Shown here piece after piece: positions 33,001-36,000 of a stretch of 64,000 nt of DNA. Source of the stretch: Clostridioides phage LIBA6276; sequence record MF547662.1. One strand, given 5' to 3'. The position numbers are program-made. Every line of letters begins with the position of its first letter. Position 1 is the first letter of the stretch.

Positions 33001-36000
33001 CTACAAATTCTTGAAATTCTATCCTTTCACATTGATAACACCATACTTTTACTACATCACCTTTAGAATACATTTATTGTCTTTCTCCTTAATATAATCT
33101 CAATCTTTTAATTGTAGATGGTATTTCATCCTCATTAAATATTCCTAAGTTAACACATGTTATGCTATTTTTAGGAATTTCTGTTAATCCTCTATCCACT
33201 ATAGTTAAATAACCTTTTTCTTTAAATTTTAATAATTGTGCCTCTTTAGCTTTCAATATACATATTGTATCCCCATTATTCTTAAATGACGTTAAATCAC
33301 ATTTTAAATCTATTAATTCATGTGCTATTGTTTCTGTTTCATAAGAGCAAGAAACAGTGTCTAAAATTTTGTCATACAAATAATCATAAACTGCATGTGC
33401 AACTTGTGCTCCAACTTTGCCTGGACTCATATTTAAGTCTGAATTAATTGCTATGTACATTTTTTTCATTATTATAAACCTCCAAATAAATTAAAATTAT
33501 TATCTTAATACCAATACATAATAATTAAACTATGTTTTTCAAAATCAATTATGTTTAACATTTTTTGAAATTCTTTTAATACTAAATCCCAAAACTCCTG
33601 TGTATACCTATCATCAACTGTTACTTTTTTATCATTTTTATAATAATACTCTTTATCCTTATTGTATATCTTAGAATTTATATCTTTTTGTTTAAGAAAA
33701 GGAATTATATAATCTTCCAAATCTTCCTTTGTAATAAGTATGGCTTCATCTTCATAACTTTCATAACCTTTTTCCCATTTGGCTTTATATATCATACGAA
33801 TAACTGACCAATCTTCTAAAGATATATCAATATCTAATAATTCTTCAAACTTATAAAACTCTTCTTCATCATTATTCAATTCCTTATATTTCTCACCTCT
33901 TGTTTTATTTAAATAAGTATCTAAATCTGTAACTTTTGTTTTTACTGAATAAAAACCTAAATCTAATCCCATATGTATCACCTCGCTAATTAAAACTGTT
34001 TTAATTAGATTCTAAATTCACTTTTTCTTTTATGATGTTTAATAAAGGTTTATAATTATCAATACCTATTGCTCTCATTACTCCATTATCTACATGTTTA
34101 ATATATTTCATTAAATACCTCACTTATTATTTTTAATTCATCACAATCATGCTCATTTTCTAATTTATTTTTTATAAATTCTGCTACCTCCTCTTCTTTT
34201 AACTTTTCTATATCTTCTTGATGATTTAAGATAACCTTCATAATAGATGACAAAGACATCCCATAATCATACATCGACTCATCTCTTATAATATCCTTCT
34301 TTTTATTCTTATATATTATCATTAAGTCTGTTGTATAGCAGCTGCCATAGTCACACGTTTCACATCCACTCGAATATTCTTGCTCTGTTGTTATGTCTAT
34401 TATTGCTCCATTCGTTAACTGTATTAATACCTTATCATCCATATTTATTAATTCTCCTTTTTAATTTTATTTATTTAAAACTGTTATTTTATTTAAATTT
34501 CATTTGACTGTAAATACTCAAGATTTATAATATCTAATGATTTTAATATTCAACTTTATACTCACCAGATATTTCAATACCTTCATTTTTTAAAATAATA
34601 TTTCCATCTACAAAAACTGTTATTGTAACATTTTCTAATTCTACTTCCCCACTGCTTAATTTACCTTCAATAGAAACACAATACGTTCCCTCTTTAAGTA
34701 TCTTAAAAACTTTTTTAAGTATTTCTCTTTTATCCTCATTTTCTAGAATTAAGTTAAATTTAACATTATGTTTCTTAGATGGATAAATTATAAGATTAAT
34801 TCTATCTTCTATTTTATATTCAGTCATTCAAACCTCCTTTTGATATAACACTATAGCTATTTTATTCATTTATAATATTTAATTTGGATAGATTTATTTT
34901 ATATTTATCTAAATAAGAATTTCCTTTGACCACATCAACTGCTTCATACCATAAATAATCTATATCTTCTTCAGATATTTTTAATTGTTCAATAGACTCT
35001 TCTTTCATTCTATCCATCCAGTTCTTAGCTTCTTTTTCTGTACAAACCCTATGCATATACACATGTATAAATTCGCCTTTACAAATTAATTCTTCTGCGA
35101 TGTAATATAACCTTACTTCTTTATCATCTAAATCTTGTTTATTTTCTGATTCTTCCAAAGCTGATATTAGTCTTTCTGCTGCTTTCTCATCTTTTATATC
35201 TATATTTTTTAATATAGTTTTTGTAGACATGGTTTCTCTCCTTATTATATTTATTTTTTAATCCAACCTTCTGGATAATCATTTCTTAAAACTCTTAACC
35301 CTAATACTTGTTGAGCTTGATGTATAGCATTTTGAAAATCTCTTAACTCAGAAGGATGCTGTCTTTTTAATTTGCAAAATCCATTCCATGCATTTATCAA
35401 ATTGTCCATAACCACTCCTTCTTCATAATTTAATCCATCAAGTCTTTTTCCTTCTCTATTACCATTCATTGTTATTGTAATCCCATTTAAATCTAAACTA
35501 TTTTTATTTAAACTTTTTATGTAATGTATTATGGGTTTTACTACATCTTCAATATCTGCATTTACCTTTCTAAGTAAACTATAATCACCACAATCATATT
35601 CAACATAAGCTAATTGGTTTGTATCACTATCAAAACCTAATGATAATTCTGTTTTACTAGCTATAGGTATTAAATCTCTTTTGCAATTAGGACATACTAT
35701 TACATCTTCATTTAAGAAATAATAGTATTCTTGTAATGTTTCTTCTACATTGAAGTATTTATTACAATTCTCACACCAAAACCTCACAGTATCACTCCTT
35801 TTATATTTATAACATAGACTCTATTTTATTTATCTCTAATTCAACCTTCTTTTCATTAGATAATAATTCCATTAATTTTATTTCCATCTCTTCAAGTTTA
35901 CTTCTTTCCTCATTTATAGTTAATATATCTAATTTACTTTTTATATCATCTATCCAATCTTGTACATCATAACCACTCATTACAAGATTGAAGCCTAAAT

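Follow-up and report, generated by a model that had tools for sequence, protein, structure and literature searches.

The closest described relatives of the protein considered here are archaeal Pth2, with structures from Sulfolobus solfataricus (1XTY), Thermoplasma acidophilum (1RLK), Archaeoglobus fulgidus (3ERJ/1RZW), Pyrococcus horikoshii (1WN2), and Methanocaldococcus jannaschii (2ZV3), and human PTRH2, or Bit1 (1Q7S). All belong to the same Pfam family, and are single-domain proteins of 115-126 amino acids with an alpha/beta fold. Bacterial Pth1 (PF01195; Escherichia coli Pth and Bacillus subtilis SpoVC) presumably catalyses the same reaction on the same substrates, namely peptidyl-transfer RNA (tRNA) and N-acetyl-aminoacyl-tRNA. 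We take the host Clostridioides difficile to have Pth1 already. PTH2 also occurs across jumbo phages, where a 2021 comparative study proposed that it rescues peptidyl-tRNA after tRNA cleavage (PMC7824862). Here, we analysed a 64,000 nucleotide stretch of Clostridioides phage LIBA6276 (sequence record MF547662.1), referred to as the window. A minus-strand open reading frame (ORF) at 33089..33469 encodes a PTH2-family protein of 126 amino acids. We consider, with a probability of about 0.72, that this protein is an active PTH2-type hydrolase, supplementing tRNA recycling and functionally tied to RNA repair.

The phage protein matches Pfam PF01981 (PTH2) with E=2.1e-14 and 54.1 bits (gathering score, 23). 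The match covers positions 2-115 of the 115-position profile and residues 3-126 of the protein. No other Pfam family, including Pth1 (PF01195), was matched at E<=1. Similarly, a search of NCBIfam returned the Pth2 models and one chance match, with no Pth1. In PHROGs, the protein matches phrog_1866 (E=7e-31), and a direct search of PDB sequences found archaeal Pth2 (1RLK, 1XTY, 1RZW, and 1WN2), plus the recent entry 24BT. A subfamily profile, built from the phage protein and 16 relatives, matched each of the seven distinct solved Pth2/Bit1 sequences along its whole length, with E between 3e-20 and 2e-24. The subfamily alignment was also used for an AlphaFold2 model, which has a predicted local distance difference test (pLDDT) score of 89.1 and a predicted template modelling (pTM) score of 0.82. 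The model has four strands (residues 2-9, 68-74, 88-91, and 103-112) and four helices (16-40, 45-65, 76-84, and 118-121), the architecture described for Pth2 (PMC11202043). When it was compared with the PDB, using Foldseek, ranks 1-14 were all Pth2/Bit1 (probability 0.94-1.0, E<0.003), and the next match had E=0.73. Together, the Pfam, PHROGs, NCBIfam, PDB-sequence, and fold searches rule out an unrelated family or a chance ORF. Note that phrog_1866 is labelled 'unknown function' in PHROGs despite clear PTH2 members, an annotation gap. Note also that PDB 24bt chain A (127 residues, deposited as 'peptidyl-tRNA hydrolase') is the second best solved structure for the subfamily profile (E=1e-23).

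Three motifs are common to the phage protein, archaeal Pth2, and human Bit1. The N-terminal motif is DL.MS.GK..AQ..HA, the C-terminal half contains D.G.TE...S.T, and L.L is terminal. Residues K18, Q22, H25, D92, G94, T96, and T104 of the phage protein align, by HMMER, with K18, Q22, H25, D86, G88, T90, and T98 of S. solfataricus Pth2 (1XTY). Conservation was scored after aligning the phage protein with 164 family members from the searches. Among these 165 sequences, the columns of the seven residues are 96-99% conserved. Furthermore, ten positions are conserved in at least 93% of sequences (M14, G17, K18, Q22, H25, L72, D92, G94, T96, and T104) and the phage protein keeps them all. Relatives at 36-59% identity likewise keep the conserved PTH2 positions, and retention in such distant relatives implies purifying selection. 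The protein is placed in the PTH2 family by its profile matches, by its size and fold, and by its active-site positions, which are conserved. The original prediction, of a PTH2-type rather than a Pth1-type enzyme, is upheld. The Pfam, NCBIfam, PDB-sequence, and subfamily-profile searches all point to PTH2 alone, the alignment to PF01981 spans the whole domain above the curated cut-off with no unrelated family, and K18 and D92, with the other conserved positions, are present.

The phage protein also differs from its described relatives. It is 21-28% identical to archaeal Pth2 and human Bit1 in structural alignments, and has a longer, variable hairpin at residues ~27-65. Unlike eukaryotic PTRH2, it has no N-terminal mitochondrial or membrane segment. 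Bacterial Pth1 is unrelated in sequence and fold, and the Pth1 profile gives no match. Judged from sequence comparison, the protein is best filed in a divergent, virus-borne branch of PTH2 (phrog_1866), rather than as an orthologue of the archaeal housekeeping enzyme.

A gene for the RNA ligase RtcB (417 amino acids; Pfam PF01139, 224 bits) lies at 29178..30431, also on the minus strand. With respect to transcription, it is 2.7 kb downstream of PTH2. We searched ±6 kb around PTH2 in 80 viral loci with the RtcB, ligase, and Tpt1 proteins of the window. Besides the C. difficile phages, three other loci (L041, L043, and L027) have RtcB near PTH2. In L041 and L043 (6001-7678, plus strand), a 142 amino acid PTH2 is followed, after a 34-bp gap, by a 404 amino acid RtcB that is 48% identical to that of the window. 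Both are viral contigs (82-129 kb) that have no relation to the C. difficile phages, and they contain the tightest PTH2-RtcB pairing seen. In L027, RtcB is 2.5 kb upstream of PTH2. In none of the 80 viral loci was Tpt1 within 6 kb of PTH2. We conclude that linkage of PTH2 and RtcB is recurrent, not general. It modestly supports a role in RNA repair and tRNA recycling, and RtcB is the probable functional partner of PTH2. No conserved operon partner emerged beside PTH2; the adjoining genes are phage-specific hypotheticals, and are wholly different in Enterococcus phage H1, XacN1, and metagenomic contigs. As a separate observation, L004 (1381-2343) and L006 (770-1198), two metagenomic contigs that are phage-like and unrelated, have genes for PemK/MazF-type toxins less than 9 kb from PTH2. 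The 127-kb L004 contig also has a PcfJ-like gene and a nicotinamide mononucleotide (NMN) transporter.

The PTH2 gene starts with ATG, and its translation contains KMYIAINSDLNMSPGKVGAQVAHA, TIVDRGLTEIP, and a C-terminal LRLY. These strings match exactly those quoted in the original prediction, which gave no strand; the gene is on the minus strand. It encodes the same protein as LIBA2945_00112 (AUO78502.1). Upstream of the ATG, the coding strand reads TTATTTGGAGGTTTATAATA, and contains GGAGG. This Shine-Dalgarno sequence, 9 nucleotides 5' of the ATG (33479..33483, minus strand; cctcc on the plus strand), provides a strong, canonical ribosome-binding site. The gene is packed in a dense, unbroken array of minus-strand genes, 35 bp from the end of the upstream gene and 15 bp from the start of the next. 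A scan of the co-directional small genes found no terminator-like sites, on either strand, between 28.5 and 42.5 kb of the window. Their absence, across 28500-42500, would fit either non-canonical termination or polycistronic transcripts of great length. Promoter-like sites were rarer than in shuffled sequence and, in such AT-rich DNA, the promoter scan is therefore uninformative. The PTH2 gene thus lies within a long co-directional array of probably early or accessory genes.

Between 28000 and 40000, the window shares 100% identity with Clostridioides phage LIBA2945 (phiCD5763; MF547663.1, 132,508 bp, circular). The flanks (1-27999 and 40001-64000) have ~97.7% identity to LIBA2945 over just 66-79% of their length, and ORF positions are shifted relative to LIBA2945 beyond ~45.5 kb. 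The window cannot be equated with LIBA2945 throughout, since this holds for 28-40 kb only and the flanks are mosaic. With identity confined in this way, the window comes from a mosaic sibling in the phiCD5763/phiCD211/phiCDIF1296T group of large plasmid-like C. difficile siphoviruses. Phages of the phiCD5763/phiCD211 type are circular plasmidial siphoviruses of C. difficile, and persist as plasmid-like prophages (PMC5786514). Hence, sequence identity and this earlier work agree with the suggestion that the carrier is a Firmicute phage-plasmid. The same DNA has also been filed as ~130-kb non-mobilizable C. difficile plasmids. The genome is 26% guanine plus cytosine (GC) and has many very short ORFs. 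By tblastn, the PTH2 gene was found in 5 of the related Clostridioides phage records and not in CP067347.1 or CP069348.1. The gene is, then, accessory in this phage group. No tRNA genes were found in the whole 64-kb window, and the phage group carries one or two elsewhere in the genome (PMC5786514).

PTH2 is a large superfamily; an exhaustive profile search returned 7,108 representative clusters at E<=1e-3. Few relatives exceed 50% identity to the phage protein, and their sources are C. difficile elements or metagenomic contigs. All 17 of 17 close relatives carry PF01981 or are fragments. The next relatives in the phage collection are from Enterococcus phages with 134-142-kb genomes (33-36% identity), followed by jumbo phage XacN1. 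In IMG/VR, 111 relatives were confirmed, the majority on contigs longer than 100 kb. A structure search of viral proteins found annotated PTH2 in the giant viruses Yasminevirus, Pithovirus, and Klosneuvirus, the jumbo phages Atu_ph07, phiN3, and VH7D, and fowlpox virus. Relatives in cellular genomes are archaeal, or on scattered contigs from Bacillota and a few other bacteria. Three viral contigs, L020, L021, and L028 (66, 154, and 349 kb), each have two PTH2 paralogues, ~1.2 kb apart and 38% and 32% identical to the phage protein (1843-3365, 6001-7523, and 5468-6990, respectively).

Jumbo phages and giant viruses (Xanthomonas XacN1, Agrobacterium Atu_ph07, Klebsiella RaK2, Klosneuvirus, and Yasminevirus) likewise carry PTH2 in large double-stranded DNA genomes, with RNA-repair and translation-related genes, and the same role has been proposed (PMC7824862). 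In contrast, the present carrier, at ~132 kb, does not reach the jumbo threshold of 200 kb, and the host of this temperate, plasmid-like siphovirus is an anaerobic Firmicute; identity is ~17-31%. The closest catalogued phage family is phrog_1866, considered here together with PTH2 of the Schiekvirus-like Enterococcus phages (H1, EF1, and VRE9_1-4), which are the 134-142-kb phages noted above and also have Gram-positive hosts. In these phages, PTH2 sits among nucleotide-metabolism genes and 3 kb from a large tRNA array, as in H1, whereas the window has RtcB nearby and no tRNA gene.

Our neighbour-joining tree contained 135 non-identical sequences and 117 columns, with no support values, and deep branching is unreliable. 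The phage protein falls inside a 13-member clade of sequences from viral, metagenomic, and bacterial contigs. Conversely, a pure clade holds 44 of the 50 archaeal sequences, and the phage protein is outside it. In the same data, the phage protein is equally distant, at ~0.70, from the nearest archaeal and the nearest bacterial-genome homologue. Recent capture from an archaeon or a eukaryote is unsupported in this unbootstrapped tree, which keeps the archaeal sequences apart. The original prediction had envisaged horizontal acquisition from such a donor, to be found by phylogeny. This part does not stand: the tree yielded no donor, the clade is of viral and bacterial contigs, and identity to solved archaeal and human structures is 23-28%. 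The nearest relatives appear to be viral, a cellular donor cannot be named from the sequences compared, and the protein looks like an old, virus-borne lineage.

How might such an enzyme act? PTH2 would cut the ester bond joining the peptide, or N-blocked amino acid, to the 3' end of tRNA, off the ribosome. Hydrolysis would then return free tRNA for re-charging. During phage replication, the phage enzyme would add to the capacity of host Pth1, such that tRNAs are not locked up as peptidyl-tRNA when translation aborts. One source of abortive translation could be heavy expression of a genome with 26% GC that is full of very short ORFs. Note that peptidyl-tRNA drop-off is favoured by short ORFs and particular early codons, and that phage growth is sensitive to Pth capacity, since lambda bar minigenes become toxic under limiting Pth (PMC8012679). 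A second source could be RNA damage, by nucleases of the host or a competitor, and here PTH2 would act beside phage RtcB. The RtcB linkage, and the proposal made for jumbo phages (PMC7824862), suggest such a connection to RNA-damage repair. Two ideas in the original prediction concern the possible role. Rescue after defence-induced arrest agrees, as a hypothesis, with the jumbo-phage proposal. Hydrolysis of aberrantly modified aminoacyl-tRNA is plausible, by analogy, since bacterial Pth1 reverses TacT-type acetylation of aminoacyl-tRNA (PMC9241777); the knowledge is of Pth1, not Pth2.

Several observations weigh against an active hydrolase tied to RNA repair. First, the full-length matches to the NCBIfam Pth2 equivalogs NF003314 and TIGR00283 are below the cut-offs (45.5 versus 126 and 34.6 versus 82, respectively). 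Since these scores are so far under the cut-offs, the protein should not be presumed an orthologue of the characterised archaeal enzymes. Second, template modelling (TM) scores, from Foldseek, against Pth2/Bit1 crystal structures are only moderate (0.58-0.75). The helical hairpin, longer and length-variable relative to archaeal Pth2, is modelled with lower confidence. Third, the need for K18 and D86 in catalysis by S. solfataricus Pth2 was reportedly established by mutagenesis (Fromant et al., Biochemistry 2005), and our literature searches found no published assay of any phage PTH2. Finally, in all but a few lineages, PTH2 is surrounded by small, unrelated, hypothetical genes. In favour of a link to tRNA, 16 of 76 viral loci have tRNA genes no more than 6 kb from PTH2, as does Enterococcus phage H1, although the figure has no null model behind it.

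The best surviving alternative is a dedicated counter-defence enzyme that undoes attack, by the host or a competitor, on charged tRNA. In one version, the enzyme would remove the N-acetyl-aminoacyl group added by GNAT-type toxins of the TacT/AtaT/ItaT class, as Pth1 can for TacT-type acetylation (PMC9241777). In the other, it would strip peptide from peptidyl-tRNA after an anticodon nuclease has cut the anticodon loop, allowing RtcB to reseal the break. The idea has been published for jumbo phages (PMC7824862). It also gains from the linkage of PTH2 and RtcB in three independent lineages, from the PemK-type toxin genes near PTH2 in L004 and L006, and from the accessory nature of the gene. However, most PTH2 loci have no RtcB linkage, no PADLOC defence or anti-defence model matches PTH2 or nine neighbours, and no cognate C. 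difficile toxin was identified in this analysis. Moreover, nothing sets counter-defence apart from general supplementation of capacity, which requires no specific trigger. We therefore regard a dedicated counter-defence function as unlikely, if worth keeping in mind. A specific form of the idea is that PTH2 and RtcB make up a two-enzyme salvage pathway, for tRNAs attacked while loaded with peptide, that neutralises tRNA-targeting immunity or toxins of C. difficile or its competitors. PTH2 would strip peptide from nuclease-cut or N-acylated tRNA coming off stalled ribosomes, and RtcB would reseal the cut. This pathway is, in our estimation, a tentative proposal with the odds clearly against it.

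A re-purposed PTH2 fold, in which catalysis is irrelevant and the protein acts by binding tRNA, the ribosome, or a host protein, is far less probable. A model is human Bit1, for which a role in apoptosis has been proposed to work by binding. Divergence from the archaeal equivalogs and the remodelled, variable hairpin would fit. However, the protein and its relatives at 36-50% identity keep every highly conserved position of the superfamily, including K18 and D92, which is unexpected if only binding matters. Equally far-fetched is a tool for host takeover, where Pth2 would not spare fMet-tRNAfMet or aminoacyl-tRNAs, lowering host initiation and charged pools and reshaping translation for the phage. 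The sole ground here is that archaeal Pth2 is not known to show the discrimination of initiator tRNA seen with E. coli Pth1. The name 'aminoacyl-tRNA hydrolase', given to homologues by the Prokaryotic Genome Annotation Pipeline (PGAP), is merely an Enzyme Commission (EC) name. Against takeover, the phage relies on the same initiator tRNA and charged pools, the element persists as a plasmid-like prophage, arguing against a toxic constitutive product, and archaeal Pth2 works as a substitute for Pth, rather than as a toxin, in the accounts of Rosas-Sandoval 2002 given by PMC9241777 and PMC8012679.

Other end-processing genes lie near the PTH2 and RtcB genes, all on the minus strand. At 38409..39692 is an ATP-dependent ligase of 427 amino acids, with DNA-ligase-type adenylation and OB domains (Pfam PF01068, 53 bits; PF14743, 58 bits). 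Its score with the RNA_ligase model, 21.5 bits, is below the cut-off for that model, and any tie to PTH2 is uncertain. At 41121..41720, 7.7 kb upstream of PTH2, is an RNA 2'-phosphotransferase, Tpt1/KptA (199 amino acids; Pfam PF01885, 160.9 bits). This passes the NCBIfam NF002014 equivalog cut-off (251.2 bits versus 239). RtcB ligation leaves no 2'-phosphate for Tpt1/KptA, which is one of a loose set of RNA-end-processing genes in the phage. The small ORFs between PTH2, RtcB, the ligase, and Tpt1 have no Pfam match, and belong to phage-specific PHROGs of unknown function. At E<=0.001, the PADLOC-DB defence models gave no match for PTH2, RtcB, Tpt1, or seven other neighbours, and membership of a known anti-phage defence system was rejected on this basis.

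The RtcB of the window scores under every NCBIfam equivalog cut-off, including that of the PrfH-coupled model TIGR03073 (116.1 bits versus 271.8). No release-factor (prfH-like) gene is annotated in 36 kb around RtcB, and Pfam gave no match for the ORFs on either side of RtcB. We thus reject a PrfH-RtcB2 pair for ribosome rescue and repair, given this score and the lack of an annotated prfH-like gene nearby. The MF547663.1 label for RtcB, 'release factor H-coupled RctB family protein', is unsupported; RtcB is of a divergent generic type.

The identity of the PTH2 gene is right but already known, from databases and literature, this very phage included. MF547663.1 names LIBA2945_00112 'peptidyl-tRNA hydrolase'. 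Elsewhere, the names are 'Peptidyl-tRNA hydrolase gp325' (phiCD211), 'putative peptidyl-tRNA hydrolase' (phiCDIF1296T), and the PGAP name given above. A 2018 paper on these phages lists peptidyl-tRNA hydrolase together with RNA 2'-phosphotransferase and tRNA-splicing ligase genes (PMC5786514). What our analysis adds is the intact set of conserved superfamily positions, the absence of any cellular donor that can be identified, the repeated adjacency of PTH2 and RtcB, and a corrected label for RtcB.

If the two-enzyme pathway is real, PTH2 would be an anti-defence gene with a defined partner, and no mere housekeeping supplement. Should PTH2 and RtcB indeed act against tRNA-directed defence, they would represent a new class of counter-defence, with a bearing on the persistence of phiCD211-like elements in clinical lineages of C. 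difficile. More speculatively, Pth1 is pursued as an antibiotic target, and a mobile, structurally unrelated PTH2 in C. difficile is a conceivable means to bypass inhibitors of Pth1.

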